This document shows positions 8,063-27,976 of a DNA stretch of 30,457 bases, piece by piece. The DNA comes from a virus. Taxonomy: Duplodnaviria; Caudoviricetes. The stretch covers positions 1 to 30,457 of IMG/VR virus record IMGVR_UViG_3300005611_000142. The stretch is one strand, 5' to 3'. Under the pieces are notes generated by a model. That model was not told where the DNA came from, did not search any database, and saw nothing but the letters and a program-made list of their open reading frames with translations. The position numbers were made by a program, and so were the translations under genes. The stretch's first letter is position 1. Each line of letters begins with the position of its first letter.

Positions 8063-8070
8063 GTATTTAG
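8063..8070 (-). promoter_or_regulatory. T4-late-like promoter box CTAAATAC
   Basis: Located just after the capsid-gene terminator, upstream of the neck/tail operon. Confidence 0.6.
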
Positions 8071-8101
8071 CGAATAATTGGAAAACCCATAACTTTTCAA
8101 G

Positions 8102-8131
8102 AAAAAAGGGCGATATTGCTACCGCCCTTTT
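8102..8131 (-). terminator. Rho-independent terminator after the major capsid gene
   Basis: GGGCGGUA-GCAA-UAUCGCCC stem-loop followed by U6 on the minus strand. Confidence 0.88.
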
Positions 8132-8155
8132 CGTTATGCCTAATTAATCAGTTGA

Positions 8156-9013
8156 TTAAAGAGCCGCGTCTGCGATGATACCAACACCATAAGCGTCGAA
8201 TATTTCGCTTGTCGCATAAGCCATTGTGCCAACTATTTGGTCCGCACGTTGGCTTGATTGTCTTTGAGTTTCAATTCTCATGTTACGTTTAACCATGTAA
8301 CCAAGAGCATCTGAACTCATAGCCGCACCCACATAAGCACCACTTGAAGCGCCTGATACAACTGTTGATTCGAAAATAGAAATTCCCGCAATAGTTGCAA
8401 TATAGCCAGTTCTTAGTGCCTCGTTTGCAAGGATATGGTTGTTCATTGGTGTGTTACCGTTACCAGCAAGAGCCTTCTTAAGTTGGAATGCTTGGTATGG
8501 GTGTAGCACACAAACGTATGGTCCAGGAGCATTGTTTGCTCTTAGAGTTGCCGCAGCCTTGAAGATGTCGTCAACTGTGATTTCAGCCGCACCTGATCCT
8601 ACAGTGTTTGAGAAACCTGTGAATAGTGCCGCTAAGTCTTCGTCAACTTTCTTAGCCATAGCATCACCTAACTGTCTTCCGATAGCAGATGCTAAGTCTT
8701 CATTGCTTGACTCTTTTGACAAATCAGTCAATGTAACCATTGCACCAATTTCTGATGCAGTCATTGTCACTGACGTTGTGTTAAAAGCAGTGTTAGCCGC
8801 AATGTCAGTTCCATCAGTTAAGCCTGATGCTGAAATTGCTGGATAGATTGGAACCTGTGCCGTTAAGCCTGGAGTTCCAGTCATGTCGTAGTTACGAACA
8901 AGCGGACGAATCACAGTCTGTTCAGAAAGTGTGTATAAAGCCGCTTGGACGATGTTTGAATACATTTCTGACGAAACACTCGCCGTTACTGCATTCGCTG
9001 AATAAATTGCCAT
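8156..9013 (-). CDS. Major capsid protein (HK97 fold, P22/N4-gp56-like)
   Basis: Follows the scaffold gene; strong RBS AAGGAG; motifs LGDAMAKKVDEDL, VCVLHPYQ..L and IATIAGISIFES; followed by a terminator. Confidence 0.9.
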   Translation of the reverse strand: MAIYSANAVTASVSSEMYSNIVQAALYTLSEQTVIRPLVRNYDMTGTPGLTAQVPIYPAISASGLTDGTDIAANTAFNTTSVTMTASEIGAMVTLTDLSKESSNEDLASAIGRQLGDAMAKKVDEDLAALFTGFSNTVGSGAAEITVDDIFKAAATLRANNAPGPYVCVLHPYQAFQLKKALAGNGNTPMNNHILANEALRTGYIATIAGISIFESTVVSGASSGAYVGAAMSSDALGYMVKRNMRIETQRQSSQRADQIVGTMAYATSEIFDAYGVGIIADAAL

Positions 9014-9047
9014 AATATCGTCTCCTTATATTAGCAAATTGTTGTTG

Positions 9048-9752
9048 TTATATGCGAACACCCTTTGCTCGCATAATTTGGGCATAGCGTTGTCTATGTT
9101 CTGCATTGTTCATATCCAACTTGCTTATGTCCGTATCAACCACAGTATCTTGCCTTCCAATGCCCTGTCCAGTGCCACTGCCATTTGGGCCAGCACTAAC
9201 AAAGTGTGGATTTGCTGTAAGGAATTCTTTTACCAAGTTTGATACTGCTAATGGATTACCATTATCATCATATCTAACCTGTCCATTCGTATCAACCACG
9301 TCAACGCCACCTGCCTCATTAAGTTTGATCTGACCTTTTAGCAATGAAACCACCTGTTGTGGATTAACTGCCTTTTGGTTACTTGCCTCACTTAATAGCG
9401 TGCCGTCAACTTTAATGGAAGTAAGTTCTGTTTCATACTGTTGAATTTTGCCATTGAATTTCTCCGCCTGCTCCTTCAACAATTTTTCAAACTCTCCACG
9501 CTTTTCCATCTCTTGTTGGCGTGTAGTTTCTTTTTCTTCCACGAGTTGATTATAAAGATCCAAGTCAACGCCTGAATATTTCTTTTCAAACTTTGCCTTT
9601 TCTCTCGCAACCCTCTCCGCAACAATACGATTAACATCGTCCTGTGTAAGAGTATTTTCCTTTACAGTTTCCTGTGTATTTGCCTGCTCTTTACCTTCTG
9701 GTTGAGACGCAGTTGTCTCAGTTTCGTTTACCGCTGTGTTTTCCGCGTTCAT
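9048..9752 (-). CDS. Capsid scaffolding protein
   Basis: Acidic N-terminus, LTQDDVNRIVAERVARE, coiled coil, NPHF..GSG; lies between portal and capsid. Confidence 0.85.
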   Translation of the reverse strand: MNAENTAVNETETTASQPEGKEQANTQETVKENTLTQDDVNRIVAERVAREKAKFEKKYSGVDLDLYNQLVEEKETTRQQEMEKRGEFEKLLKEQAEKFNGKIQQYETELTSIKVDGTLLSEASNQKAVNPQQVVSLLKGQIKLNEAGGVDVVDTNGQVRYDDNGNPLAVSNLVKEFLTANPHFVSAGPNGSGTGQGIGRQDTVVDTDISKLDMNNAEHRQRYAQIMRAKGVRI

Positions 9753-9812
9753 TATTACCTCTTTCCTTTATGAGTTGAGTTCTACTCCCTGCCCCCTTCG
9801 GCAGTATTATTG

Positions 9813-9820
9813 TTATTTAT
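9813..9820 (-). promoter_or_regulatory. T4-late-like promoter box ATAAATAA
   Basis: Intergenic, about 60 nt upstream of the scaffold-capsid operon. Confidence 0.6.
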
Positions 9821-9840
9821 GCCATTTGGCACAAATTCAT

Positions 9841-9921
9841 TTATTTGCGGCGTCTTCCGCCGCGTGTTCCTGGTTTTTTCTTTTTGCCGCCTCGTGTGCG
9901 TCTTCCACCTCGCATAGCCAT
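9841..9921 (-). CDS. 26-aa Arg/Lys/Gly-rich protamine-like peptide
   Basis: Hand translation MAMRGGRRTRGGKKKKPGTRGGRRRK*; GGAG upstream; fills the gap after the Hc1-like gene. Confidence 0.65.
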   Translation of the reverse strand: MAMRGGRRTRGGKKKKPGTRGGRRRK

Positions 9922-9941
9922 ATCCAATTCGCTCCCGTAGT

Positions 9942-10190
9942 TTATTCTATTTCTTCTGTTTCCCAGCGGAATGGAATTATTGTTTTCTTGCGTTCCAATA
10001 TTTCCTTTCTACGCTGTTTGCACAAATGGTGCAATTCTAATAAATTGTTCCTTGCCCTAACGCCCGCTGCCTTAGAATCCTTGACCTCAAAGCGCCATAC
10101 GTTTTCCTTGTATTCTTCAAGGACTTGTCTAATTCTCTTTTCAGTGGCAATCTCATTAATGAAATCTCTCTCCGGAATGTATTTTCCCAC
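9942..10190 (-). CDS. Histone H1-like (Hc1 family-like) DNA-binding protein
   Basis: FEVKDSKAAGVRARNNLLELHHLCKQRRKEI resembles the Hc1 core (KGNKAAGTRAR..LEL.KL.K..RK); GTG start overlaps the upstream TAG. Confidence 0.65.
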   Translation of the reverse strand: MGKYIPERDFINEIATEKRIRQVLEEYKENVWRFEVKDSKAAGVRARNNLLELHHLCKQRRKEILERKKTIIPFRWETEEIE

Positions 10191-10330
10191 TAACGCTTTC
10201 TCCTACCACCACGCTTGCCTCTGCTTGCCGCCTGTATGGCTCTGCCCTGTCTTTCTGCCTCTATTTTGGTTCTATAGACCTTGCCTGATGAACCCCAACG
10301 ATATCCGCCCTTAACCTTGCGAACTGGCAT
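10190..10330 (-). CDS. 46-aa small basic phage protein
   Basis: Hand translation MPVRKVKGGYRWGSSGKVYRTKIEAERQGRAIQAASRGKRGGRRKR*; overlaps the portal 3' end and is coupled to the next gene. Confidence 0.72.
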   Translation of the reverse strand: MPVRKVKGGYRWGSSGKVYRTKIEAERQGRAIQAASRGKRGGRRKR

Positions 10331-11885
10331 TTCCAAATAACCTCGCTAATTCAGGATGTAGTTCCTTGATCTGCTCATCAGTATAACCTTCTGAAATCAT
10401 TTCTCTTAGATGCTGTAATAGTGCATCTGGTGATGTGACTGGTGGATGTTCCATGGCTTCCATTTGTGGTGTTTCCATTGCCTCATGTTCAGCATAAGAA
10501 CCATTTTCCTGTTTCCAGTCCTGATACCATTCTTCCACTTCCTCATAACTTCTTTCAGTGATGGTTTCAAGCATCATCTTTTCAATCTTGTCAATCAGCA
10601 TAGGATTGGTTGGATTTGAATCCTTGGCCATCTTTAACAGCGCAACATCATTTGCCTTGTCCTGGATTGAGAATGATCTTGGATATTGAACTTCACCATC
10701 CCATACTGAGCCTTGGTATTGTGCCCATAATCTCCAAATCTGTTCTTCCGCATGCTCCAAGTTCATGGCAAAATCTGCCAATTTGGCATTCAACATTTGG
10801 AATTCGGTTTGGAGTCCGATGCCCGATAGCCTACGGCTTTCAATGCTTCTAATTCCTCCCAGCGATGCCATTCTGTCAATGGAATCAACTTTCTTTTCAA
10901 TTGCCTGTAACACTGATTCAATTGAAGCACCATCCGGTTGTAACAAGTAAGGTTTTAGTCCTGGATCAAGTCCATCTGGCAATTGTATGATTGAACCAGC
11001 ACCTGCCGTTGCCTCAGTGTCAGCCGTCTTTGCGAGGCTGGGATGGTTTGTTAATCTAATGATCTGTTCAATCTCAGAAGCAAATTCGAAGAGTTCCTTT
11101 TGAACATCGGCAACATCACCCATCGGTGATATTCCTATTCCTCTTGTTGCGCTTCTTTGTCCATAAACACACACTGCTGGAATTTTACCAAGAGTGTTTG
11201 GGATGGTTTCATACAAGTCACCAGTTTTATTTTCACCATCAATGAGATAGACATTGATTTCTTCTGGTGTGTATTCTCTTATGTATTGCTTGCCTTCAAT
11301 TATTTCTTCCTTGACCTTAAGATAGGTTAATTGATATAATCCTGAAGCAGTTCTTTCATACTTCCAATCCAATACATTTTCAGGAGTGAACAGAGAAACA
11401 TAAGGACGTATTCCCTGTTTTAATTCATCGGCACGTGTGAATGACGCAGTGTTGGGTTTGTCCACAATGACCCAAACATTACCATATACCATTGCCAAGG
11501 CACTCGTCTCACGAAGAAATTGTAGGAAACTTCTACCATCAAGATCAGCATCCGCAAGGAATGGATCCAATCCTTGATCGTTTTCTATGCTTCCATAATT
11601 TCTTTTGGGTTCCTTTCTAAATAGGAATGAATTGTATATTCCCACGATTGATTTGACATGATTATCAAGTCCAACCGCTCTTAATCTCTTTTCATAATCA
11701 TCTCTTGATTCATAATAATATGGCTCCAAATATTTTCCTTGAAAAAATTCGAATCCACCATTGTAAGAGTCAGCCAAAAATCTCCATCGATTATAATAGT
11801 GTTTGTAGGCTGGATGCGCCTCCACTATGTAATCAACATTGAGTTGTGGATTTCCCTTTATAATTTGATCTCTAATAACGGGCAT
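10311..11885 (-). CDS. Portal protein
   Basis: 524 aa directly after TerL; ADADLDGRS, YGNVWVIVD, RPYVSLFTPENVLDW and LGKIPAVCVY motifs. Confidence 0.9.
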   Translation of the reverse strand: MPVIRDQIIKGNPQLNVDYIVEAHPAYKHYYNRWRFLADSYNGGFEFFQGKYLEPYYYESRDDYEKRLRAVGLDNHVKSIVGIYNSFLFRKEPKRNYGSIENDQGLDPFLADADLDGRSFLQFLRETSALAMVYGNVWVIVDKPNTASFTRADELKQGIRPYVSLFTPENVLDWKYERTASGLYQLTYLKVKEEIIEGKQYIREYTPEEINVYLIDGENKTGDLYETIPNTLGKIPAVCVYGQRSATRGIGISPMGDVADVQKELFEFASEIEQIIRLTNHPSLAKTADTEATAGAGSIIQLPDGLDPGLKPYLLQPDGASIESVLQAIEKKVDSIDRMASLGGIRSIESRRLSGIGLQTEFQMLNAKLADFAMNLEHAEEQIWRLWAQYQGSVWDGEVQYPRSFSIQDKANDVALLKMAKDSNPTNPMLIDKIEKMMLETITERSYEEVEEWYQDWKQENGSYAEHEAMETPQMEAMEHPPVTSPDALLQHLREMISEGYTDEQIKELHPELARLFGNASSQG

Positions 11886-13142
11886 TTAGTTCCATCTCCT
11901 TGCTTGTGTGTTACCTGAGAATGCCCATCGTTGTGGTTCCTGTGGTGCATATTCAGTGCGAAGTGGATATAGGAAATCTACCAAATAGCCTACGGCATCA
12001 GCCATATGATCCAATTCTCCATCCTTTTCAATTATGGATGTTCCTGGTTTGTATACCATTCTTTCTAAACTGTTCACTATCTGCTTACACTTTGGATCAA
12101 CAAACAATGAACTTATTCCTTTTGCGTTTTTCAACTTACTATTTACAGCATTTACCCTATCGCGAACAGGAGTATGGCTATTTCTCACCTGCACGACAAA
12201 TCCTGCATTCTGTAAGATTGAAATATCTGTTCTACCACCCGCTGAAGTCTTTCTTTGCCTACCAGCAGGATCCGGATACATAACAATTCTTGAATTTGGA
12301 TAGCGTCTCTTTAATTCATCGCATACCTCATCAGTGTTTGATCCTTTCATAACAATTTCATCTACGAAATAAACTGTATTATTTTCTATTACAGAAATAC
12401 ACACTGACATTGGATCCACGTTAAAGTCAATTCCACAGTGTATTTCTGTAATATCCATGCCCTTGCATGGTTTTATCGTATAATCTCTATCAAAGTTATA
12501 ATAGACCTGTCCGCTATATGTGTTCCATGAAGCACAATATTCTTGCAAAAATGTGCGTTCGTCCATGTCACGCTTTGCTTGATCTATTTCTTCTTCTGGA
12601 ACATTGCCACCTTCAAGTGTTGTGTATGTATGGGCAACCCATCCTTCAGTATCCTGTGCCATGGTAAACATTTGATGGCTAAAGGATCCTACTCCTCGGG
12701 GAGTTCCGATGAACAATGCTCTACCTTGTTTGTCAGATAGTGTTGGCCTTAGTATTTGATACCATACCTTTGGATCAATGTCCTGATACTCATCCAAAAC
12801 CGCGTAGTTCAAACCAACTCCGAGAAGTGATTCGGGATTGTCCGCGCCCTTGAGATATATTACACTTCCATTCTTTAATCTTAATTTTAATTCTGCTTCG
12901 TTGCTGGCTTCAATCCAACGCAAATCTTTTAGTTTGCCCTTTAATTGATCCCACACAATGGTTTTTGCCATTCTATAACTTGGTGCCACGTAATAGACCA
13001 TTTGATTCGGTTTGCTTGCCGCTCTTGCTAATTCTCTCAAGGCAACGTATGTTTTTCCAAAACGACGTCCACACGCAGAAACCACGAAGCGATTTTGAAG
13101 AGCACTTTGGCAAATTTCTTTTTGTGGATCACTTAATGGCAT
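11886..13142 (-). CDS. terL: Terminase large subunit
   Basis: Walker A GRRFGKT, Walker B YAVLDE, IGTPRG, nuclease motifs GIDFNVDP and DHMADAVGY. Confidence 0.96.
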   Translation of the reverse strand: MPLSDPQKEICQSALQNRFVVSACGRRFGKTYVALRELARAASKPNQMVYYVAPSYRMAKTIVWDQLKGKLKDLRWIEASNEAELKLRLKNGSVIYLKGADNPESLLGVGLNYAVLDEYQDIDPKVWYQILRPTLSDKQGRALFIGTPRGVGSFSHQMFTMAQDTEGWVAHTYTTLEGGNVPEEEIDQAKRDMDERTFLQEYCASWNTYSGQVYYNFDRDYTIKPCKGMDITEIHCGIDFNVDPMSVCISVIENNTVYFVDEIVMKGSNTDEVCDELKRRYPNSRIVMYPDPAGRQRKTSAGGRTDISILQNAGFVVQVRNSHTPVRDRVNAVNSKLKNAKGISSLFVDPKCKQIVNSLERMVYKPGTSIIEKDGELDHMADAVGYLVDFLYPLRTEYAPQEPQRWAFSGNTQARRWN

Positions 13143-13861
13143 TATTTGTCCTCCAATACAATTTCAAAGCCAGCCGCAATTGAAGTTGTTGCACCTGCCT
13201 TGGCTCTGATTTCAATATCTGTTTTTTCATTAAGAACTGGTGGTAAATCCCATTTGCGTTGGAATGGCACACCAAATGTTGATATGATACCTGTTGTTCT
13301 AAGCACACCGCCTAAACGGCCAACCATTAGTTTTGCTACAACAGGTTGATTCTTTTCAACGGAAATATTACCAGTTACGAGATAACCTCTCTTGCCTGCT
13401 GGTATGGTATAAATTGCCATGTTGGTTTGTTGGTGTTCTGCAAATATTTTTGCATAGGTCGTGCCACCGTTTGAAATGGTAACATCACCAACCAAATCAG
13501 TGTTGGATGAATTGTATGCTCTAAACACTCTTAGGAATTGTTGTGTGGTTTGGACTGCACCTGCTGAATCAGTATCATCCAGCGTTACGGTTTCAGTAAT
13601 CTCATTATAATCAGCATCAAGACCCTGTATAAAAATTGTAATGCCATTGTCAGCACTTTCATCACTTACCACTTGCATTGTAAGAGCACTTGATGGATAG
13701 GTATAAACATTGTCTCCATCCCAAACGGTCTTATAGGCTGTGGTTGCCGTTGGAAGATAACCAAACTTGTCTATGCCTGATAATTTTGGATATAATCCCT
13801 TGCGTATTCCCAATCCAAAGGTTGCATTAAAATTATTATTGAATGATGATAAGTCCGACAT
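13142..13861 (-). CDS. Hypothetical, probably virion-associated beta-rich protein between terS and terL
   Basis: 239 aa, coupled to terL; contains the DSAG motif otherwise seen in virion proteins. Confidence 0.6.
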   Translation of the reverse strand: MSDLSSFNNNFNATFGLGIRKGLYPKLSGIDKFGYLPTATTAYKTVWDGDNVYTYPSSALTMQVVSDESADNGITIFIQGLDADYNEITETVTLDDTDSAGAVQTTQQFLRVFRAYNSSNTDLVGDVTISNGGTTYAKIFAEHQQTNMAIYTIPAGKRGYLVTGNISVEKNQPVVAKLMVGRLGGVLRTTGIISTFGVPFQRKWDLPPVLNEKTDIEIRAKAGATTSIAAGFEIVLEDK

Positions 13862-13864
13862 AGT

Positions 13865-14185
13865 TTAATCCTCCCAAGGAAGAGGTGTTGTGTTTTGTGT
13901 ATCTTCTGGTGAATCCTTCATGCCCAAATATTGTTTCGAAAGAAATATTTGAACTCTCGTATCACCATTCATTGCCTTTTCCCACATAGCACGCCTTAGG
14001 CTCTGTGCTCCAGTCTGTTTGCCCTTCTCCAATAATGCGGAAAAACGCTTCTTGAGTGCGGATGCTGAACAACCCACCACCTCAGCAATCTCTTCCGGGG
14101 TGCACTGTATGCAGGCTAACTTATAGACCAAATCTCTGTCTATGGTTCTATATTTTTTCTTTTGTGTATTAGTATCTTCGCTCAT
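13865..14185 (-). CDS. Terminase small subunit (HTH)
   Basis: HTH-like LACIQCTPEEIAEVVGCS, then SLRRAMWEKAMNGD..IFLSKQYLG; upstream of terL. Confidence 0.75.
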   Translation of the reverse strand: MSEDTNTQKKKYRTIDRDLVYKLACIQCTPEEIAEVVGCSASALKKRFSALLEKGKQTGAQSLRRAMWEKAMNGDTRVQIFLSKQYLGMKDSPEDTQNTTPLPWED

Positions 14186-14508
14186 TAGGCTTGTCTCTCC
14201 AGCACCTTGATTCTAAAATTACGTGAATCCTGTAGTCCATTGGTTGTTACAATCTTAAATTCTATATTGTAGATATTGCCTGCCGTGCCGCCTGAGATGT
14301 ATGCCGTTGCTATGTAATCTGTGTTTGAAGTTGAGTCTAAGGTAAGACTGCTGTCGTCGCCTGTGATGATTGGATCTGGAAAAGAAGTTATAGTATCACC
14401 ATCTGGCATCCAGTTGGTAAAATCGAGTGAATAGTCCAAGACAGCGTATGGATCCTTTTCAATGTAAACCCCTACCCTATCTTCTTGAAATCCTGTTAAA
14501 CTTGGCAT
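14185..14508 (-). CDS. Virion fibre adaptor-like protein
   Basis: KDPYAVLDYSLDFTNW and ISGGTAGNIY motifs of a widespread small phage structural family (recognised from memory). Confidence 0.6.
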   Translation of the reverse strand: MPSLTGFQEDRVGVYIEKDPYAVLDYSLDFTNWMPDGDTITSFPDPIITGDDSSLTLDSTSNTDYIATAYISGGTAGNIYNIEFKIVTTNGLQDSRNFRIKVLERQA

Positions 14509-14511
14509 GCT

Positions 14512-15783
14512 TTATTTCCTTGTATCCAAAATTGAACCTGGCGTATTTATAAGGGTCAAGTTTTGAAGTTCTAATTTTCTTGTTTCGCTTTTGATCTCGT
14601 AAGATCGTGTTTCTTCTTGTATTGTATTTACACGATTTTCACTAATTACGGATTTTTTGCGGGATTCTGCTTCTATTATGAGCGTTCTGCCCTCTGATTT
14701 GATGGTCAATACCCTGTATGGGTCTATCACATAAATGCTGGCAAATCCAAGGAATGACGTGAATCCATTAAGCGTTGTTGATGCCAATCTCTGCCTACCG
14801 CCAAGTGCTGATATGGTGGCGTTAGTTTGTATATTGCTGGATTGTGTCCTAATCCTTCCACCAATCGCATTGATTGTGGCACTGCTTGGCAGTGTGCTTC
14901 TGCCCTGTATGACGCTTCTTGCACTAAATGAAGTAATGGCATTTAGTGTGGCATTACCAAATATCGTCTTTATACCATTGGCAGTAAGTGTGGCACTGCT
15001 GGCTTGTAATACCGTTCCATCTCTCTTTCTAACAGCATTGATGGTAAAATTAAGAGCATCGGAAAGAGTTGCTGAAACATTTCTCGTTCTTAGGGCATCA
15101 ACTGATACCGTGGCACTGCTGGCTTTAAGAACTATTCCCTGTCTTTCTCTAACAGCATTAACTGTTAGCGTGGTAATGCTATCCAATTGCTTGGATGCGA
15201 ATATGTCTCTTCTGCCCGATGCGTTAACCGTTGTATTGGTATCAAGATTGCTTGATGCATTTCTTGTGACCAATCCATTGCTTGTTAGTGTTGCCTGTGT
15301 GGTTAGCGTTCCATTACCAACATTAATTTTAACGCCTTGAACGTATAGGCACTGCCAAGTTTCCTGTGTGGGCCTTTCCCAGGTATTTTGATTGTCCCAT
15401 GTTCCTGGACAAACATACATGTCAATGCTACCGCCAACAAATCTCTTGGCATCAACACTGACCGTTGATTGCGTGCTGATTGAAACGACTGGTTTAATTG
15501 TTAGGCTTGCGCTGATTGATGTTGACAGTGCATCAGACAGTGTTGCTGATCCAACCCTATCTCTGCTTCCAAAAGAAGTTAATGTGGCTGATGCTGCCAG
15601 GGTGATGGGCTGTGCAATATCAGTGGCATTACCAGCGTTCGCACTTAATGTAACAGATGAGGAGAGAGTTGCTGAGCCGTTGATTATGCCAGTGACATAA
15701 CCAGCATCAACATAATTGCCCTCTACAAAAGTATTATCTACGTATCCACTTTCAACGTAGATATCACTTACAAAGTCAGTCAC
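14512..15783 (-). CDS. Repetitive Ser/Thr/Ala-rich fibre-like virion protein (about 20-aa repeats)
   Basis: Repeats such as NAVRERQGIVLKASSATVSV / NAVRKRDGTVLQASSATLTA (120 nt apart); N-terminal YV repeats. Confidence 0.65.
   Translation of the reverse strand: MTDFVSDIYVESGYVDNTFVEGNYVDAGYVTGIINGSATLSSSVTLSANAGNATDIAQPITLAASATLTSFGSRDRVGSATLSDALSTSISASLTIKPVVSISTQSTVSVDAKRFVGGSIDMYVCPGTWDNQNTWERPTQETWQCLYVQGVKINVGNGTLTTQATLTSNGLVTRNASSNLDTNTTVNASGRRDIFASKQLDSITTLTVNAVRERQGIVLKASSATVSVDALRTRNVSATLSDALNFTINAVRKRDGTVLQASSATLTANGIKTIFGNATLNAITSFSARSVIQGRSTLPSSATINAIGGRIRTQSSNIQTNATISALGGRQRLASTTLNGFTSFLGFASIYVIDPYRVLTIKSEGRTLIIEAESRKKSVISENRVNTIQEETRSYEIKSETRKLELQNLTLINTPGSILDTRK
14544..14551 (-). 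promoter_or_regulatory. T4-late-like promoter box TATAAATA
   Basis: Exact T4 late consensus, 35 nt upstream of ATG 14508 at the head of the adaptor-terS-terL-portal run. Confidence 0.6.
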
Positions 15784-15808
15784 CTGGGTGCCCCCCTAAA
15801 AGTGACCG

Positions 15809-16258
15809 TTAAGCCAATGTTACGGTAAGTGATCCTGCGGTAATTTGGAAAGTATCTGAAACCAGAATCTCACGAGCAGTGTCAAGTGCGCCATAGAATA
15901 ACACATTTCCCTGACCAGCACTATCACCAGCATTACCTGCTTCTGCATTGTCCATGATCGCAACGTGTGTGATCGTGCCCCAATTACCATCTGTTGCAGT
16001 TGCCCAGGTAAGGTTTCCTGAATTTGATACGGCACCGTTTGTGATGGTTCCAAATGTTACGGGAACACGCTCATAGCCGCCACCCACGCATTCATTTGTG
16101 AGTGTTCCTGCTTCTAATAGATCTCCGGTTGCACCAGCACTATCATCTGATGTGAATAGCGCAACATAAACAGCGGCAGGAGCCGTTGTTGATTGTGAAT
16201 TAGCCTTTAGCCAAAAATCAAGTGTTCGATTTTCAACATAGTCCGAACTTGCTGACAT
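15809..16258 (-). CDS. Virion fibre-associated structural protein
   Basis: DYVENRTLD, VYVALFTSD, GGGYER, WGTITHVAIMD and GNVLFYGAL belong to a widespread phage fibre family; strong RBS AAGGAG. Confidence 0.72.
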   Translation of the reverse strand: MSASSDYVENRTLDFWLKANSQSTTAPAAVYVALFTSDDSAGATGDLLEAGTLTNECVGGGYERVPVTFGTITNGAVSNSGNLTWATATDGNWGTITHVAIMDNAEAGNAGDSAGQGNVLFYGALDTAREILVSDTFQITAGSLTVTLA

Positions 16259-16304
16259 AATATTATCTCCTTATAAGGTTTTGCTTGCGTTTGTTATAAC
16301 AAGT

Positions 16305-16312
16305 GTATTTAT
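16305..16312 (-). promoter_or_regulatory. T4-late-like promoter box ATAAATAC
   Basis: Intergenic, about 47 nt upstream of ATG 16258; a TTGTTATAACAA palindrome (16291-16302) lies just downstream. Confidence 0.6.
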
Positions 16313-16347
16313 TGTAGATGAGAAAGGATTAAATGCTACGCTAATTG

Positions 16348-17007
16348 TTAATGTCGCTGTATTACCGCGTAAGTGTTTTTAACCTCAATGCTTGGACTTA
16401 CACCACAGGTTCCAGGATATCCTCTTAAACCATATTGTGCTGTTGTGCTGGTTACCGTATAATTTATAAAACAAATACCACGTGGGTCTCTTATATCCAT
16501 CTGTGGAGCACCAGTGCCACCGACACCCTGCCTCATAAATTGAAGTGTGCTACCATCATAAAAGGCAAATTCAGATGGAGTTGAAATATTAGCGGTTGTG
16601 CTATAATGGTATAGAACCAGGCTATAATTTCCAGTAGTATTGTGCGTCCAATAATGGATGCCCGATCCTGGACTCGTAGTTACTGTTATACCACTGGTAG
16701 TTGGATTAGTATCAGGACCCAAAAGGGTAAATGGTGTGGTGGTTGAAAGTGAAAGATAGGTCCTATTTCCAAGCAAGACTATGTCACTGGTTGAAGAAAA
16801 AGTGCTTACGGCAACCTGTTCCCACTTGCCTGATGATGTTGAGTATCTTAGGACATCTCCATCAGATGGTGATGCGATGTTTAAGTGATCAATTATGTCA
16901 TTGACATTGTCAATGTTTTGTTTTATGTCCGCTCGTGCAAGACTAATCTTGTCACCACCCTGATCCACGTTTGCAGTGCTTGCCTTTGTTCCACTTGGCC
17001 ATGCCAT
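16348..17007 (-). CDS. Fibre / receptor-binding-like protein, MAW-family paralog 1
   Basis: N-terminus shared with 27521.. and 27993..; PSDGDVLRYSTSSGKW fibre repeat; RBS AAGGAG. Confidence 0.62.
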   Translation of the reverse strand: MAWPSGTKASTANVDQGGDKISLARADIKQNIDNVNDIIDHLNIASPSDGDVLRYSTSSGKWEQVAVSTFSSTSDIVLLGNRTYLSLSTTTPFTLLGPDTNPTTSGITVTTSPGSGIHYWTHNTTGNYSLVLYHYSTTANISTPSEFAFYDGSTLQFMRQGVGGTGAPQMDIRDPRGICFINYTVTSTTAQYGLRGYPGTCGVSPSIEVKNTYAVIQRH

Positions 17008-17020
17008 AAATTATATCTCC

Positions 17021-17767
17021 TTAAGCCTCATCATCTTCAAATGTTGTGCTACCATCTGATCCGTTCATGTGTAACAATAATAATGTATTTGCGTCATTAG
17101 TAAATGCCGCAGTTGGTTCTATGTAGGTTGAACTTGCTGGATCGTATCTTGAAGTATCTGATAATCTTACCTCATCAATCCAACCACTGTCAGTTCTATT
17201 AAATGGTAATGCTCCATCCAATGATAGGGCACCCATACCCCAATTCTCAAATGAAACCGTGCCATTATAGGTTATCTGTCCAATTCTCTGTCCAGCACAG
17301 AATATACCAACATTGTTTGAACCACTTCCGCTTCTTGATATCGCAACATGGATCCAAGTATCCGCACTAATCAATCCACTGCCAAGGAAGTTAAGGCTTT
17401 GGTTACCAACCTGCACCTGTAGCCTCATTGGAACATCCTCATTTCTTAGGATTATGAACATTATATCTGAGGAACTATCACTGCTTGTTTCCTTGGATGA
17501 TAATATTATTGAGTTATTTGGATACTGTTGGGCATCAAAATTAAACCAACATTCACAGGTAAAATCTCCTGTTAGATCCCAATCTCCTGATGTGCTTGGT
17601 GATGCCTTTAACCAATCACCCGTTCCGTCCAACAATAAACTTGCGCCGCCAAATTTGCTCCTTGCGGTATCAACCTGTGCATCACCATTTACCGTAATGG
17701 AGGATCTTGGACCTGCTGCCGCGGCTGCCTGTTTTGAAAATATGCTTCTTGAAAATCCTAATGGCAT
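17021..17767 (-). CDS. LamG / concanavalin A-like lectin-domain virion protein
   Basis: SKFGGASLLLDGTGD, DFTCECWF, WIHVAISRSG, GWIDEVRLS and DANTLLLLH are hallmark motifs of phage LamG domains. Confidence 0.82.
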   Translation of the reverse strand: MPLGFSRSIFSKQAAAAAGPRSSITVNGDAQVDTARSKFGGASLLLDGTGDWLKASPSTSGDWDLTGDFTCECWFNFDAQQYPNNSIILSSKETSSDSSSDIMFIILRNEDVPMRLQVQVGNQSLNFLGSGLISADTWIHVAISRSGSGSNNVGIFCAGQRIGQITYNGTVSFENWGMGALSLDGALPFNRTDSGWIDEVRLSDTSRYDPASSTYIEPTAAFTNDANTLLLLHMNGSDGSTTFEDDEA

Positions 17768-17776
17768 GACTTCTCC

Positions 17777-18463
17777 TTACGCAAAGTTGGTCACGTAGTT
17801 CATGTAATAATTCGTTCCATCATAGAAGACCGTGCAGATATCAATAGTGTCAGTCACTGACATTGTTGGATCCGTTGCGTCTGGTGTTTTCATTGTGGTT
17901 GTTAGCGTTCTGCTGGTTCCATTCGTATCAATGATAAGAGTCAATGATTGTCCTGCTTCGGGGTTTGAAAATGCGTTAAAGGTTAAATTTCCATTTAAGG
18001 TAATTGTTTGAACGTTTCCGTTTGCCACATCTGGAGTGATAGTTCCTGAAGTAGTTCCAAGACTATAAATTGTTTCCTTGTAATCCTTGAATTCAACGGC
18101 ATCAACCACGGCTTCCAATGCTACCGTAATCTGTCCAGTTGAATCAGCAGTCACATCAATGTTGGCACCTGGTAATACACCTTCAACCAAATCAACTACG
18201 GCCGCGCCCTGTGTAAGAGTAAGCACTGCCTGTCCAGTTGAATCTGAAGTAATGGAAGTGGTTAATCCACCAGAGCCATTTACAACGAGCCTTCTGTCGG
18301 TTGTTGATGCTGTGGAAAGTTGTGCAGAACCCGAATCACCTTCTACGGTAAGTTCCGTTCTGTTTAATATATCAATAAAGTTGTTATCAAGTTCTTGGAA
18401 ATTTAGACTGGTCCCCTTGGTAGAGGCTCTTGCGTCTGTTTCCTGTCTAAGGGTAATAGTCAT
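17777..18463 (-). CDS. Fibre-like virion protein
   Basis: ITLR..KGTSLNFQELDNNF N-terminal fibre motif; C-terminal NGNVQTITL..GQSLTLII..YDGTNYY domain. Confidence 0.68.
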   Translation of the reverse strand: MTITLRQETDARASTKGTSLNFQELDNNFIDILNRTELTVEGDSGSAQLSTASTTDRRLVVNGSGGLTTSITSDSTGQAVLTLTQGAAVVDLVEGVLPGANIDVTADSTGQITVALEAVVDAVEFKDYKETIYSLGTTSGTITPDVANGNVQTITLNGNLTFNAFSNPEAGQSLTLIIDTNGTSRTLTTTMKTPDATDPTMSVTDTIDICTVFYDGTNYYMNYVTNFA

Positions 18464-18497: not shown

Positions 18498-18956
18498 TTA
18501 TTTATAAAAATTATAGTATTTGCCTGATTTTTGTAGCAATCTGCGGCTATCATTCAGTGTGCTTGCCCTCTGCACTATCACAAGCGGCGAATCCTGGAAG
18601 TTATAGTCCATGGGCAATGGTGGATCCTCCGTATCGGGGTGCATTAGGAGTATTTCTATGTCTTTCTTATAGTATCTTGATTGATAATCATCGCAGATTG
18701 CCATCAATTCATCATAATCTTCCCATGGACCGCATATCACTATGGCTTCATAGCCAACCGCATGGAATACATCACACACCTGGCTGATTTTTCTTTCCCA
18801 ATCGGTGGTCTCAACCACCGTTATGCTGTCAAGATACTGTTTTATGAATGGGCAGATTGCCATGCCATCCATTTTTTTGTTGGGCACGGACAATTTTTGC
18901 TTGATGTAGCGCCAAACCTTAGATTTTAGATTTGTTCCATTTGACATTTTTACCAT
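18498..18956 (-). CDS. Hypothetical protein (DUF1415-like CPF motif)
   Basis: ICPF and LLMHPD motifs; continuous with the upstream operon. Confidence 0.55.
   Translation of the reverse strand: MVKMSNGTNLKSKVWRYIKQKLSVPNKKMDGMAICPFIKQYLDSITVVETTDWERKISQVCDVFHAVGYEAIVICGPWEDYDELMAICDDYQSRYYKKDIEILLMHPDTEDPPLPMDYNFQDSPLVIVQRASTLNDSRRLLQKSGKYYNFYK
18499..18506 (-). promoter_or_regulatory. T4-late-like promoter box TATAAATA
   Basis: Exact consensus, 35 nt upstream of ATG 18463 (fibre operon); overlaps the upstream stop codon. Confidence 0.62.
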
Positions 18957-19664: not shown

Positions 19665-19886
19665 TTAGGTCCTCTTTTCGTTTGCAATTTCATTTATTAC
19701 TCCTTCCAATAATTTTATTTTTTCCTGCATTTGTTTTATCTGTGCTGATAGTTCATTCACTGCCTTGATTATCTGTTTCTCATTGGCCATTATGTTTGCA
19801 ATGTGCGTGTCAGCAGTCACGGCAAAGTTTTTAAGTTCTACCAAATCCGCATAGGGATCCCAGTCTGGTGATGGTTGGAATTTCAT
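19665..19886 (-). CDS. Hypothetical coiled-coil protein
   Basis: RBS GAGGA; ATGA overlap with the upstream gene; heptad pattern. Confidence 0.6.
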   Translation of the reverse strand: MKFQPSPDWDPYADLVELKNFAVTADTHIANIMANEKQIIKAVNELSAQIKQMQEKIKLLEGVINEIANEKRT

Positions 19887-20341
19887 ATCGTCCTCTTCTT
19901 ATACTTAACGGCACTGGGTGTCAGTGTTGCCGCATCCTGGGGATGCCAACCCAATCTTAATCTTGAATAGTAGGTTGGTGATGGTATGCCATTTGATTTT
20001 GCCACATCCAACATCTTGTAATCACCACGATATCTTGCACGGGTGTTGCGCCTATTCACGGCAGGATCAACCCAACGGCAGTTGCCTGGTTCATAATTGC
20101 CCAATGGATTTACTCTGTCTATTTCTCTGTAATCCTCGCAGGGCCCCATGTCATCAAGGAACCGTAGGAATGCATCTTCTGATCCATTGTCTATGTTCCA
20201 ATCATCACACACTTCAACATCAAGATAATCTCCATTCTGTCCTACCTTGCATCTCTTATTCATGCGATACCAAATGCGCCAGGTTCTTGGATACTCCTTT
20301 CTCGTTTCAGTGTATAGGGGATCAAATTTCTTTTTCTTCAT
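19883..20341 (-). CDS. HNH-family endonuclease
   Basis: W..M.KRC, VEVCDDW, FLDDMG and IDRVNPLGNYEPGNCRW, plus a C-terminal DNA-binding-like segment (YYSRLRLGW). Confidence 0.8.
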   Translation of the reverse strand: MKKKKFDPLYTETRKEYPRTWRIWYRMNKRCKVGQNGDYLDVEVCDDWNIDNGSEDAFLRFLDDMGPCEDYREIDRVNPLGNYEPGNCRWVDPAVNRRNTRARYRGDYKMLDVAKSNGIPSPTYYSRLRLGWHPQDAATLTPSAVKYKKRTI

Positions 20342-20696
20342 TCTTGTTTCTCACGTCATGTTTATCATCCCATGGCACATTTGGCCATCCCTGTAATTCA
20401 ACATAACCTCTCTTCTTAAAATGCTGTCGCCTTGTTATGATTATGCAGTTGTGTGGTCCCCAGGCTTCTATTGGATCCTTTCGTGTCATGCAATAGTTGT
20501 GTGGTTGGCTACCAAGATGTTCCGCGTATCCTGATGTCATCCACATGTCATACCAAGTGTCCTGATCAAATGCCCATTCCTCACGCCTAAATTTTGCCTG
20601 TGCTCGTGCCTTTGAATATCTCTTTGCCCATTCCTTTGGTATGTGATATATTCTTGGCCTACCATTTCCAAATTTATTTCCCTTTTGAAATGTCAT
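20322..20696 (-). CDS. His-Me finger / HNH-like protein, paralog of 25510..25842
   Basis: RAQAKFR..W, YCMTRKD...WGPHNC. Confidence 0.55.
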   Translation of the reverse strand: MTFQKGNKFGNGRPRIYHIPKEWAKRYSKARAQAKFRREEWAFDQDTWYDMWMTSGYAEHLGSQPHNYCMTRKDPIEAWGPHNCIIITRRQHFKKRGYVELQGWPNVPWDDKHDVRNKNEEKEI

Positions 20697-22478: not shown

Positions 22479-22500
22479 TATTTATACAAATATATAAATA
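22479..22500. promoter_or_regulatory. Back-to-back TATAAATA boxes (minus 22479-22486, plus 22493-22500)
   Basis: TATTTATA-caaata-TATAAATA: two exact T4 late consensus boxes in divergent orientation. Confidence 0.62.
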
Positions 22501-22503
22501 ACA

Positions 22504-22532
22504 TTGACAAAATAGACAATTTAGTCTATAAT
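22504..22532 (+). promoter_or_regulatory. Consensus sigma70 promoter TTGACA-17-TATAAT
   Basis: Perfect -35/-10 with 17 bp spacer upstream of ORF 22592; inverted repeat TAGAC-N6-GTCTA spans the spacer and the start of the -10. Confidence 0.88.
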
Positions 22533-22591: not shown

Positions 22592-22882
22592 ATGCAGGGC
22601 ATAATAATACACACGCAGGAATGCGATTCACTCTATGGTGGCAAGTGCTACCGCAACACCGTGAAATGCACGGATGGCAAGACGAGGACACTTTGGGTTG
22701 ATCCCCGAATGGACAACTATAGGCATTGGGCCGAAATCATGCAGATAGCCTGCTCAAGCAAGTATAGGAGCAAGGGCATAGCATTGGATGGATTGGCACC
22801 ACTCAAGAAGAATGATAAAAATCTAAACGCGGACTATCCGCCCACCTTCGTTGACTTGGTTGACAAGGAGGAGATAGTATGA
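22592..22882 (+). CDS. Hypothetical early protein
   Basis: RBS AAAGGAG; first gene after the consensus sigma70 promoter. Confidence 0.75.
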   Translation: MQGIIIHTQECDSLYGGKCYRNTVKCTDGKTRTLWVDPRMDNYRHWAEIMQIACSSKYRSKGIALDGLAPLKKNDKNLNADYPPTFVDLVDKEEIV

Positions 22883-23596: not shown

Positions 23597-23700
23597 GATG
23601 GATTTTTCCGCAACCTGTGGTTACCCTGGTTTAGCGAGATGAATGGCGTAAGCCTTGCCCCCCCACCACTCTGTCACACAGTGGGACGCCCCTCACCCAC

Positions 23701-23729
23701 AGTATAACACACTCTGACCCCAAGGTCAA
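23701..23729 (-). promoter_or_regulatory. Sigma70 promoter TTGACC-17-(TGn)TATACT, leftward
   Basis: -35 at 23724-23729, -10 at 23701-23706, extended -10; mirror image of the rightward promoter. Confidence 0.72.
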
Positions 23730-23763
23730 GAAAAATATCCCCACAGTTTGGAAAAATTCCCTC

Positions 23764-23792
23764 TTGACCACCGTGCGAAACTGTGCTATACT
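23764..23792 (+). promoter_or_regulatory. Sigma70 promoter TTGACC-17-(TGn)TATACT, rightward
   Basis: -35 at 23764-23769, -10 at 23787-23792, extended -10; no convincing ORF downstream. Confidence 0.75.
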
Positions 23793-24065: not shown

Positions 24066-24102
24066 CATTCTGCCCAATACCCCCTCGTATTGCTACAGAA
24101 TG
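24066..24102. terminator. Long hairpin at the junction of convergent transcription units
   Basis: CATTCTG-CC-CAATAC-(CCCCTC)-GTATTG-CTA-CAGAATG immediately after the stop of 24104..24844; no U-tract. Confidence 0.45.
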
Positions 24103-24103
24103 C

Positions 24104-24844
24104 CTACGGTTTCTCGTGATTTTGTTGTTCTTTTGAATGGCCCCGTTGCTTGCGCTTGCCCTTCATGTGATCCAGTGTATCTCCATATAGATAGGCAAGT
24201 ATGTGGCTTCCTGGCACCTTATGGTCTATGTGCGCTGCGAGGTTATGAAAACGGTTGCCCTTGGCTTCATACTGCATTCTAACTTGATCAAACACGAAAC
24301 TGTCATGCCATTCCCTTAGCAAATAGATCATGTCCGTGTCATATAGTTTTCTAACACTTGCTATGTAACTGTGTGTGCTTGGGTGTTCAAGATTAAACAG
24401 CAGCAGTCCACATTCACTGTGAAGGTTGTGCCTTCCCGCGTAACTCATTAGGCAGTCTCCTTTATAGAGATTATGTGTTATCCAGTCTTCGTCTATGTGT
24501 TTGTGGAAACGGGTATCTGCATCAATCCACAGTAGCCTATCATAGTCATCCAAAGCCCAGTCTTCAAGTGCCTGTGCTATTGAGTATACCTTGTAGCAGA
24601 AACGCACACTGTCATGCTTGTAACTGCTCACTGGTCTGTAACTGTTGCGCTCAACAAAGTCACAGTGTAGGTGTAGGTGCGTGGTCTTTATCGCCAGTGT
24701 TTCTTCTGAATATACCTTGAGATCCAGGAGATCATGTGGGAATGTGTGCCAAAAGCCCTGTGCATACTGTTCATATAACTCCCTGTTGAAGGAGGTGATT
24801 ACGAGCGTTTTGTGTATTCTTTTGATCTGCGTGTCCAAATGCAT
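24104..24844 (-). CDS. GT-A glycosyltransferase (DxD motif)
   Basis: VITSFN, VRFCYKVYSI, LLWIDADT, SECGLLLFNL, EWHDSFVFD and DHMKG.RK motifs of a phage GT family. Confidence 0.82.
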   Translation of the reverse strand: MHLDTQIKRIHKTLVITSFNRELYEQYAQGFWHTFPHDLLDLKVYSEETLAIKTTHLHLHCDFVERNSYRPVSSYKHDSVRFCYKVYSIAQALEDWALDDYDRLLWIDADTRFHKHIDEDWITHNLYKGDCLMSYAGRHNLHSECGLLLFNLEHPSTHSYIASVRKLYDTDMIYLLREWHDSFVFDQVRMQYEAKGNRFHNLAAHIDHKVPGSHILAYLYGDTLDHMKGKRKQRGHSKEQQNHEKP

Positions 24845-25505: not shown

Positions 25506-25513
25506 GTATTTAG
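25506..25513 (-). promoter_or_regulatory. T4-late-like promoter box CTAAATAC
   Basis: Overlaps the upstream stop codon; directly precedes the structured leader. Confidence 0.58.
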
Positions 25514-25846: not shown

Positions 25847-25854
25847 TTATTTAG
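25847..25854 (-). promoter_or_regulatory. T4-late-like promoter box CTAAATAA
   Basis: TAAATA ends 5 nt before ATG 25842 (leaderless arrangement, no SD). Confidence 0.58.
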
Positions 25855-26297: not shown

Positions 26298-26323
26298 TGC
26301 AATTCTCCTTTGTGTATTGTTAC

Positions 26324-26352
26324 ATTATACAATAAAACGGGTATAATCTCAA
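26324..26352 (-). promoter_or_regulatory. Sigma70 promoter TTGAGA-17-TATAAT
   Basis: -35 at 26347-26352, -10 at 26324-26329; downstream sequence resembles that of the 22504 promoter. Confidence 0.8.
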
Positions 26353-26489
26353 TGGATAATGTATCCAAACAGTAATAGGTGTCTAAAGACACCTGTTATC
26401 GCACAAAAATCTGTTTCGCTCCACTCAACAGATATTTTCTGCTTCTAACACAAATGTTCCTTTCCTAATACAGAGATAAACACCACTTG

Positions 26490-26834
26490 ATGATTATTTG
26501 TCTTTATGCAGATTGTTCAGTCATACGGAACCTGTTTAAGGTTCCGTATAAAAAAGACTTTATGCGAGTTGCACAGCCTAAACGGAAGTAGGTATTTTTC
26601 TGTTATGTGTTACTGGACTCTGCTCTTTTCCAACCTACAGCGACTCATCTTGCGATGCCTAAACCTCGTTCCAAATTGTTTAGGTGTTTGTAACAACAGT
26701 TTTTCGTATGTTAGCATTCATACTCAGTAAATCCAAATCTATTGCTTTCAGTTTTTCTTTACTGTTTAGGAGTGCATACTCATCATATGCCCTTGTCTCC
26801 AGCGGAATTATATCTGGCCCGCTAACCTTATGTG
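26490..26834 (-). ncRNA. Candidate large multi-helix non-coding RNA
   Basis: No credible ORF; at least six helices including long-range and pseudoknot-like pairings (see findings); boundaries approximate. Confidence 0.55.
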
Positions 26835-27044
26835 CTAATTGAATATGCCTTTGAGTTTTTTATAGGTGTTACCTGAATACTTACGCCCTTTTTGTTTGCC
26901 TTTTGTATTTGGATCAACATTAGTAACCCATTTTGTAAGTTTTTCAATCTGGTAATAATTTAGGGAGCCTAAGTCTCTTGTGCCGTAATATTTTTCAGCC
27001 AAGTCATAGAATTTTGCGTTAAATCTTTGTTTATAATTTGCCAT
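26835..27044 (-). CDS. Small basic hypothetical protein
   Basis: 69 aa, Lys-rich, 18 nt downstream of CTAAATA; directly upstream of the ncRNA candidate. Confidence 0.62.
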   Translation of the reverse strand: MANYKQRFNAKFYDLAEKYYGTRDLGSLNYYQIEKLTKWVTNVDPNTKGKQKGRKYSGNTYKKLKGIFN

Positions 27045-27061
27045 CGTTTTGCCTTATACAC

Positions 27062-27084
27062 TTATTTAGTCATAACCTAAATAA
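27062..27084. promoter_or_regulatory. Back-to-back CTAAATAA boxes (minus 27062-27069, plus 27077-27084)
   Basis: TTATTTAG-tcataac-CTAAATAA inverted pair. Confidence 0.58.
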
Positions 27085-27105
27085 AGTATAGCAAAAGTGG
27101 CTATT

Positions 27106-27333
27106 TTAGTCAATATTTGATTTAACCAAAGCAGTGGTCTTGCCACAATCCATGCAGGAACGTCGTGCGATGGTATCTCTTAGGCTGCCTCTTTGGCTTT
27201 CAGGACGATGGTTTGGGTTTGGATAAAAGCGTAGATTGAAATCCGTGCTTCCACAAAATTGGCAGGTATCAAATTGGAACATCTGCCTCTTGCTAAGGGT
27301 ATAGGTGTCCGGATTTACCTTTAGATAGGGCAT
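27106..27333 (-). CDS. Small zinc-ribbon protein
   Basis: CQFC...CMDC; start reassigned to ATG 27333 (TAATG coupling). Confidence 0.62.
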   Translation of the reverse strand: MPYLKVNPDTYTLSKRQMFQFDTCQFCGSTDFNLRFYPNPNHRPESQRGSLRDTIARRSCMDCGKTTALVKSNID

Positions 27334-27521
27334 TACAGCATCATGCTCAGTGCTACGATAACGCCAAGCAATTGCATGAATACAACACCAACCGCCCAAC
27401 CAAAATAACGCTTGATATCGTCAATGTCCTCTTGCATGTGTGCCAGATGATTGTTGATGATTAAATCAACCTTTTGCTCCACCAAAGCAATTCTTGTTTC
27501 TATTTCGTTGATATCGCCCAT
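27333..27521 (-). CDS. Coiled-coil plus C-terminal TM protein (XhlA/holin-like)
   Basis: IETRIALVEQKVD..NNHLAHMQEDI then a hydrophobic tail; start ATG 27521 (TAATG coupling). Confidence 0.6.
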   Translation of the reverse strand: MGDINEIETRIALVEQKVDLIINNHLAHMQEDIDDIKRYFGWAVGVVFMQLLGVIVALSMML

Positions 27522-27952
27522 TATAATACCGTTCCAAGTTGGACTGCACGCCAATCCGCACCATCATATACCGCAATACAGCCAACACCAGCACTGTCAT
27601 CTCCGCCATCCGAACAGTAGGCAACGTCACCCGCAGCCTTGTCCGTTCTTGCGTTTAACTGTGCGGTAGTTTGTGGTGAAAGATTGAGTATTTCCTCAAG
27701 GGCAACCTTGCCCGTTGATGGATCCAATGTTAAATTGGTTGCTGAAGTAGTGTTTAATTCGTCGGGCATGTAGGTTGCCGCAATCTTTGAACTTGCATTT
27801 AGCGGAACCACTCCATTGGCAGTGCCTCTTCCGTCAATTACCAGCACCAATTCGTCAAGTGCTGCCTTTAGATCCGCCCTTGCTGCCGCAGGTGAATCCG
27901 TGCCGCTATCAAGATTGGTTGTAATAATATTTGAACTATTTGCCCAAGCCAT
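27521..27952 (-). CDS. Fibre-like protein, MAW-family paralog 3
   Basis: Shared N-terminal domain; C-terminal GDVAYCSDG..CIAVYDGADW (Mtd-like fibre repeat); RBS AAAGGAG. Confidence 0.65.
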   Translation of the reverse strand: MAWANSSNIITTNLDSGTDSPAAARADLKAALDELVLVIDGRGTANGVVPLNASSKIAATYMPDELNTTSATNLTLDPSTGKVALEEILNLSPQTTAQLNARTDKAAGDVAYCSDGGDDSAGVGCIAVYDGADWRAVQLGTVL

Positions 27953-27968
27953 TTGCTACTCCTTTGTT

Positions 27969-27976
27969 ATATTTAT
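27969..27976 (-). promoter_or_regulatory. T4-late-like promoter box ATAAATAT
   Basis: Intergenic, 17 nt upstream of ATG 27952. Confidence 0.58.

Follow-up and report, generated by a model that had tools for sequence, protein, structure and literature searches.

The stretch of DNA analysed here (the window, 30,457 nt) is the whole of virus record IMGVR_UViG_3300005611_000142 (Duplodnaviria; Caudoviricetes). It carries direct terminal repeats, a 77-nt overlap closing a circle of 30,380 bp, and is a complete circular siphophage genome of about 30.4 kb from the proposed family 'Nanhuiviridae'. Nearly all genes lie on the minus strand. Among the 53 open reading frames (ORFs), scanned with PHROG and Pfam, is a full siphovirus head and tail gene set, i.e. 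the machinery for encapsidation is encoded. The subject of this report is the hexamer TAAATA, which stands at operon heads in the manner of a T4-type late promoter, and the T4-like helper phage on which such promoters may make this genome depend. The structural genes fall into two parts that meet across the terminal overlap.

1..18463, minus strand: siphovirus morphogenesis module (terminases, portal, scaffold, capsid, connectors, tail tube, chaperone, tape measure, Dit, hub, tip, fibres), from PHROG and Pfam, with HTVC111P orthologues at about 29-51%
27521..30457, minus strand: remaining tail tip and fibre module, joining position 1 across the 77-nt overlap

The predicted late boxes are listed below, with counts of orthologous upstream regions that hold the box where these were made.

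8064..8069, minus strand: late box that follows the capsid terminator and precedes the head-tail adaptor gene, whose real start is 8001; 59/59 + 16/16 regions
9814..9819, minus strand: late box 5' of the scaffold-capsid operon, predicted start 9808, TA step at +10/+11; 71/71 + 14/14 regions
14544..14551, minus strand: exact TATAAATA in the 3' end of gene 14512-15783, doubtful promoter; 1/39 + 1/14 regions
16306..16311, minus strand: late box preceding head-decoration gene 15809-16258; terminase and portal have no conserved box nearer to them upstream; 34/34 + 12/12 regions
18499..18506, minus strand: late box 5' of the fibre gene 17777-18463, overlapping the preceding stop codon; position retained in most relatives
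22479..22486, minus strand: late box at the head of a glycan-modification/HNH-like operon; the box stays, the first gene varies among relatives
22493..22500, plus strand: divergent late box, exact TATAAATA, directly 5' of the sigma70 promoter at 22504
25507..25512, minus strand: late box followed by CTATT, in line with the T4 consensus
25848..25853, minus strand: late box that shares bases with the stop codon ending orphan gene 25851-26297
27063..27113, minus strand: tandem sigma70 promoter (27085-27113) and late box (27063-27068); same layout in relatives G001, G005, G007 and G010
27970..27975, minus strand: late box 5' of the fibre-like gene 27521-27952

A previous, sequence-only reading of the window had named ten TAAATA sites. 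All ten are present on the minus (coding) strand, three of them (14544, 18499 and 22479) within an exact TATAAATA as claimed; the plus-strand TATAAATA at 22493-22500 had been missed. Genome-wide, TAAATA is rarer than chance, with 16 copies observed against 28.1 in shuffles. On the minus strand 10 of 13 copies lie at most 70 nt upstream of a gene start, with starts curated by hand, such positions making up 10.6% (binomial p 3.7e-8); the further copies at 12140, 14625 and 19310 are all intragenic. Upstream of genes TAAATA is second of all hexamers after the ribosome-binding site (RBS) AAGGAG, and the best of those that begin with TAA. When the 45 upstream windows were shuffled with dinucleotide content kept, a count of 10 was reached in only 2 of 2000 trials. 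The statement that boxes occupy most of the larger gaps holds for six of the eight gaps of at least 60 nt and fails for the two longest, 23085-24104 and 26297-26835, which have sigma70 promoters instead. Site 14544 must be regarded as a doubtful promoter, since it falls within coding sequence, at a gene's 3' end, and relatives do not keep it. The boxes at 18499 and 25848 overlap stop codons, and the position of the former is retained in relatives whose upstream gene ends differently. Opposite-strand TAAATA pairs 9-10 nt apart occur at 22479-22500 and 27063-27083, each beside a sigma70 promoter.

The box is conserved among relatives. In the ten relatives G001-G010, 60 of 99 TAAATA sites are upstream of genes (p 2e-37, using a simple gene caller of our own). 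For the adaptor, scaffold and head-decoration genes, the first count of each pair listed above was taken from 182 family loci, with identical 60-nt upstream sequences merged and the called start required to agree with the family alignment, and the second gives new regions from 80 metagenome loci. The exact box is therefore found at these three operon heads in 206 of 206 distinct regions, the loci being related by descent and the counts not independent events. Internal operon genes have a box in just 0-4 regions per family, and the 15-nt flanks of the adaptor box have a median identity of 40%. The base before the TAAATA core is A in 92 and C in 42 of 147 family sites, the full octamer being the minority form. 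TAAATA as a by-product of AT-rich spacers or stop codons, or as some other binding site, could account for the two of ten sites that overlap stop codons and for the unconserved site 14544. It is highly improbable as a general explanation given the unbroken conservation at three operon heads, the near-zero frequency at internal genes that likewise follow TAA stops, the genome-wide depletion and a start-site signature at fixed distance from the box.

That signature is a pyrimidine-purine step 5-6 nt past the box in 122 of the 147 family sites, the predicted start purine being six bases after the last A of the box; the step occurs at 53/76 upstream versus 33/84 other sites (Fisher p 1.4e-4). A logo of 74 sites agrees with the claimed lone box, displaying no -35 signal (at most 0.47 bits upstream), and the finding of consensus TTGACA-17-TATAAT bears out that the genome's other promoters are of sigma70 type. 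The T4 late promoter is described as an 8-bp TATA box about one helical turn upstream of the start, occupying the -10 position; gp55 recognises it, with gp33 and gp45 as activators (PMC2988020). Cyanomyophages are described as using the late box NATAAATA, and a tandem early/late promoter layout is reported for RB49 and S-PM2 (PMC2984593). Sharing the TAAATA core of TATAAATA/NATAAATA at operon heads, with no -35 element, the family boxes are supported as gp55-type late promoters. An archaeal TATA box was considered and ruled out, as the bases before the box are not T-rich and a bacterial RBS and sigma70 promoters are present.

The arrangement recurs in T4-like phages. In the gp55-encoding SAR11 myophage Mosig 20 of 91 TAAATA copies are upstream of genes, 13 of these 20 with the step; in the T4-like contig C28 the figures are 47 of 247 and 22 of 47. 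HTVC111P, an autonomous sister phage with DnaD, helix-turn-helix (HTH) and lysozyme genes, has no box enrichment (10/79, p 0.06), and its scaffold and adaptor orthologues have no box 5' of them, one box being found before an adjacent gene.

A host alternative sigma factor, or a variant primary sigma, might also read TAAATA, in which case no helper would be needed for transcription. Lone -10-type promoters exist in bacteria. This is nonetheless a very unlikely account: the primary sigma is evidently canonical because the window carries consensus TTGACA-17-TATAAT promoters, TAAATA has no sigma70 -7 T in this register, the host-like contig of the one bin that contains a family member is not enriched for the box (1/22), and the lack of replication and lysis genes is left unexplained.

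The sequence-only reading found no gp55, gp33 or gp45 in the window, and profile searches agree. The gp55 profile phrog_234 matches 0 of 11 family genomes. In six-frame searches with a gp55 hidden Markov model over 2.30, 0.34 and 0.89 Mb the best E-values are 1.3, 2.9 and 0.48 (control 1.6e-100), the sets of loci overlapping in part and most covering the structural rather than the early region. Alignment with hhalign of 96 family protein profiles (up to 320 aa) to gp55 gives a best probability of 1.5%, against 99.3% for the control. Neither gp33 nor gp45 was found in the two terminal-repeat genomes searched, the window (G000) and G005. The only sigma-region match in the window is a sub-threshold HTH in the small terminase.

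The case had in fact been understated, as recognisable replication, integration and endolysin genes are lacking too. The PHROG and Pfam scan of the 53 ORFs returned no polymerase, helicase, primase, initiator, integrase, endolysin or sigma factor; beyond the structural set it returned methyltransferases, an acetyltransferase, an Hc1-like protein, HNH-like proteins and one weak holin/hemolysin-like membrane protein. The non-shared proteins of the relatives are methyltransferases, HNH proteins and unknowns, and a scan of them likewise gave no polymerase, helicase, primase, initiator or endolysin, except for a weak N-terminal 'helicase' PHROG match within a methyltransferase of G010. In lacking key replication genes the family resembles MiniFlayer-type satellites, with one fold similar to a single-stranded-DNA-binding protein (SSB) present. 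It does not qualify as a T4-like phage, having no gp55, gp33, gp45 or contractile-tail genes, nor as a satellite of the P4, PICI, PLE or cf-PICI kinds, having no integrase or primase match and a complete head and tail set.

Because virion genes stand behind late boxes and no own sigma factor was detected, multiplication is likely only together with a gp55-encoding T4-like phage. We put at about three in four the probability that the element is a satellite which builds its own virion and borrows the late transcription of a T4-like helper, and likely its replication and lysis too. Helper dependence, as first proposed from the sequence, stands as the best explanation, the promoters and missing factors being supported; the dependence itself is something we infer, with one weak case of co-binning.

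The early module bears on how such an element would start and replicate. Most consensus sigma70 promoters fall within the variable region, and several relatives have one paired with a late box in tandem; the early genes that these promoters drive differ among relatives.

22504..22532, plus strand: consensus sigma70 promoter TTGACA-17-TATAAT of the variable early module
22592..22882, plus strand: early protein with an OB fold, SSB/PriB-like by prediction and no sigma factor (AlphaFold pLDDT 92)
23625..23730, minus strand: conserved ORF-less element, with an extended sigma70 promoter, then a G-rich motif, then a second short motif
23764..23792, plus strand: second divergent sigma70 promoter, then ACGGT/ACCGT repeats, 7 per 250 nt against 0.47 expected
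26324..26352, minus strand: sigma70 promoter of orphan gene 25851-26297

Gene 22592-22882 is the recurrent one among the sigma70-driven genes. Its model is best matched by the SSB Rim1 (Z 6.4, rmsd 2.7 over 78 aligned residues), with which other OB folds draw level; Foldseek gives a best E of 7e-3 and no match at E<=0.001, and the ESM Atlas returns just unnamed viral clusters under 0.9. Outside the window, the ORF-less element of 23625-23730 is present in G004, G005, G007, G009 and a number of further contigs of the family; it was found in family members only and not in the T4-like sequences compared. It has no Rfam match, and RNA folding of the region is unremarkable (z -1.9 and -0.5). As described in PMC4412123, T4 oriF and oriG consist of a promoter and an unwinding element that form an R-loop, and ColE1 primes from a co-transcriptional R-loop. 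The element is plausible as an R-loop origin by analogy with these promoter-driven R-loops; a pac region/packaging site or a small RNA are candidate alternatives. A palindromic hairpin in an ORF-less gap is common to the window (26519-26547), G009 (3774-3803) and contig C59 of GTDB genome G025 (26781-26809). One variable early gene of a relative (L288:5360-6250), with no Pfam match, has a DGQHR-like motif, presumably of ParB/DndB type, and could relate to plasmid-like maintenance.

Two conserved HNH-like genes lie downstream of the box at 22479, both in the late-box operon.

19883..20341, minus strand: conserved HNH-like gene, presumed metal-binding Asp often replaced; PHROG HNH matches, in 10 of 11 genomes
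20322..20696, minus strand: conserved PacI-like beta-beta-alpha protein, likely nuclease-dead; in 9 of 11 genomes, paralogue at 25510-25842

The model of 20322-20696 (pLDDT 81) has PacI as best match, a weak one (Z 5.4), and Foldseek gives none at E<=0.001. Judging by the residues replaced, to which we ascribe catalytic roles, both proteins are probably nuclease-dead.

These proteins matter for another account, in which the phage is autonomous and a family protein of unrecognised fold (e.g. HNH-derived) steers host polymerase to TAAATA, with replication from an R-loop origin by host enzymes. The conservation of two genes with degenerate active sites would fit it, as would the sigma70-driven ORF-less element, which could be a protein-free origin, and the several orphan ORFs outside the structure models. 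It is unlikely all the same, since both HNH-like genes are behind a late box and not a sigma70 promoter, one folds like PacI and not like sigma, the box has the geometry of a gp55 site and is placed at -10, an endolysin was not found and the early genes are not conserved.

Evidence on a T4-like partner comes from a GTDB scan for the capsid, in which a single-protein query found 0 genomes and an alignment query found one, G025, with the family member on contig C59. In the same genome a 118.7-kb contig encodes gp55 and gp45, and gp33 is encoded on a further contig; gp55 is present in 3 of 202 genomes of this bacterial family. Contigs C28, C8, C59, C9 and C6 of G025, a GTDB representative bin, come from at least three different phages (T4-like, 'Nanhuiviridae' and T5-like). 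The box is not enriched in the remaining phage contigs of the gp55-positive bins. Matches to the T4-like contig C28 were found for eight accessory gene families, at 22-40% and in one case at 72%. In the window, the minus-strand gene 24104..24844 is glycosyltransferase-like, a function suggested by its neighbours and the annotation of DSL-LC06; its best match among 50,697 phage records is the T4-like Pelagibacter phage Mosig (38.5% over 92%), and in IMG/VR it has one weak match. A ferredoxin-type auxiliary gene, phrog_3704, is found both in relative G004 (L089:772-1248) and in contig C28. As tracers of a helper, the Hc1-like protein has its longest IMG/VR contig at 32,451 bp and 0 cultured-phage matches, and gene 13142-13861 finds no contig above 30 kb.

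The same sequence evidence for dependence would be expected if the circle were one half of a cooperative two-part phage, or if its gp55 partner were something other than a classical T4-like myophage; the GC content and the base after the box, both unlike Mosig and C28, also favour such a partner. This arrangement is quite unlikely, as the gp55 matches listed are mostly in large T4-like phage genomes, the co-binned gp55 contig has its own terminase, and a structure-less gp55 replicon was not seen, though no search was aimed at one.

Several observations weigh against dependence on a T4-like helper. The pyrimidine-purine step is at just 7 of the 10 window boxes. The base after the box is G at only 5 of the 147 family sites versus 8 of 20 in Mosig, and because this base differs, phages of the Mosig/C28 type may not be the helpers; GC is 38-44% in the family versus about 32% in Mosig and C28, and 39% versus 32% for the family member and the T4-like contig of G025. 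Co-binning in G025 is one case, the other two gp55-positive bins are without a family member, and the G025 bin seems to attract phage contigs since an unrelated T5-like phage is also binned there. The shared accessory genes are mostly 22-39% identical, which by sequence is old exchange. Gene 21284-22147 matched DSL-LC06 alone and 18498-18947 matched a podophage alone, weakly; neither matched a T4-like phage. DSL-LC06, though its genome is complete, gave no detectable ORF-less element. The structure models cover the proteins of 22592-22882 and 20322-20696; among the several orphan ORFs beyond these are 25851-26297 and 26835-27044, of which the former has no usable match in the ESM Atlas and is found in two other relatives by a word-based search. 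Finally, neither an integrase nor an evident means of attaching to a helper is there to account for co-infection.

With these reservations, dependence on a T4-like helper would suggest the following course. An autonomous HTVC111P-like siphophage ancestor would have lost replication, lysis and regulation as its operon heads came under gp55 control. After entry, the host sigma70 RNA polymerase would read just a few variable early genes, including the SSB-like OB-fold protein, and make the G-rich ORF-less transcript, maybe an R-loop origin. A T4-like helper would then supply gp55, gp33, the gp45 clamp and probably the replisome, upon which the late boxes would fire; the element would assemble its own siphovirus particles inside helper-infected cells and exit upon the helper's lysis of the cell. 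It may meet its helper by co-entry or by plasmid-like waiting. The two HNH-like proteins may have a regulatory role or hinder the helper; in PLE this part is played by CapR, a regulator with kinship to homing endonucleases (PMC8096241). A marine Proteobacterium whose sigma70 promoters are canonical is the likely host, possibly, by weak inference, one related to SAR11. A bolder version, a widespread aquatic virophage-like family of full siphoviruses that have shed replication, lysis and late regulators and persist as silent circles with a protein-free R-loop origin and the helper's gp55 as both alarm and engine, is conceivable and rather doubtful.

The family itself, one of small aquatic phages, is widespread. 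The nearest public record is DSL-LC06 (OR003941), with terminase at 66%, capsid at 68% and similar gene order, the gene set of 'Nanhuiviridae'; TAAATA is enriched there also. The paper that proposed the family (PMC10611076) states that all seven of its genomes have replication genes, whereas the GenBank annotation of DSL-LC06 lists 0; the words 'satellite', 'helper' and 'promoter' are absent from its main text. The closest cultured relatives of the structural module are HTVC111P-type pelagiphages (terminase 47-48%, capsid 43-44%). The capsid is matched by 273 IMG/VR and 211 metagenome stretches. Among the matches listed, which include 80 of each set, no family contig exceeds 34,915 bp and no flanking host DNA was seen, so that there is no sign of integration. 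The sequencing runs listed comprise five DNA runs, each with a small share, and no RNA run. A terminase group at 43% identity (105-112 kb, GC 57-62%), in which box enrichment was not found, was set aside as another family. The Hc1-like histone protein (9942-10190, Pfam E 6e-10) adjoins the portal gene and is in 10 of 11 genomes. A more distant relative, L293, has rearranged genes, different tail genes and 11 plus-strand TAAATA boxes, several before gene starts, and is possibly a second family with the same strategy.

Virion proteins of the family share a further motif. The tetrapeptide DS[A/T]G occurs 119 times in the 11 genomes versus 6.7 in shuffles, almost all in virion proteins, e.g. those of genes 15809-16258, 27521-27952 and 28451-29242; HTVC111P lacks it altogether, and neither Mosig nor C28 has it in excess. 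Together with the encoded glycan-modifying genes, it may be a signal for modification (glycosylation) or cleavage.

Late promoters of P4 respond to Ogr of its helper P2, and P4 takes the helper's structural proteins. Virophages such as mavirus, parasites of giant viruses, use helper late promoters and have their own capsid, and they encode replication genes and are eukaryotic. The claim that the present element inverts all known satellites was overstated: capsid-encoding satellites without replication genes are already known from Streptomyces, where MiniFlayer and MulchRoom have terminases, portal, capsid, scaffold and an HNH gene, no primase and, for MiniFlayer, no integrase, and depend on a large virulent helper (PMC10690885). 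Those satellites are 15-17 kb and linear with BE-cluster siphophage helpers; genomes of the window family, by contrast, measure about 30 kb and include a complete set of tail genes as well as late boxes of T4 type. The words 'promoter' and 'sigma' are absent from the main text of that paper. PLE of Vibrio cholerae relies for its activation on how far the helper's transcription has progressed and, unlike the window family, is integrated and packaged in helper-derived particles (PMC8096241 and PMC13595925). T4 and T4-like phages have the lone TATA-type box and tandem early and late promoters in common with the window family, and encode gp55, gp33 and gp45 themselves; the family has the promoters without those proteins in a siphovirus-type genome. 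HTVC111P-type pelagiphages have a related structural module, but are autonomous and without box enrichment. Use of a helper's late sigma by a satellite was not found described in the literature searched, subscription journals being mostly outside its coverage. What appears new is that the virion is complete with its tail, that the family is so broad and that the dependence on a helper's late sigma, if real, can be read from the sequence.

Virome catalogues count 'Nanhuiviridae' genomes as ordinary complete siphophages. If the proposed dependence is true, they would be a bacterial counterpart of virophages, it would account for a family without an isolate, and T4 late boxes at operon heads without gp55 would serve as a simple rule for finding others. 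A family of silent circles would then tax the dominant marine myophages, and L293 suggests that the strategy may be broader.

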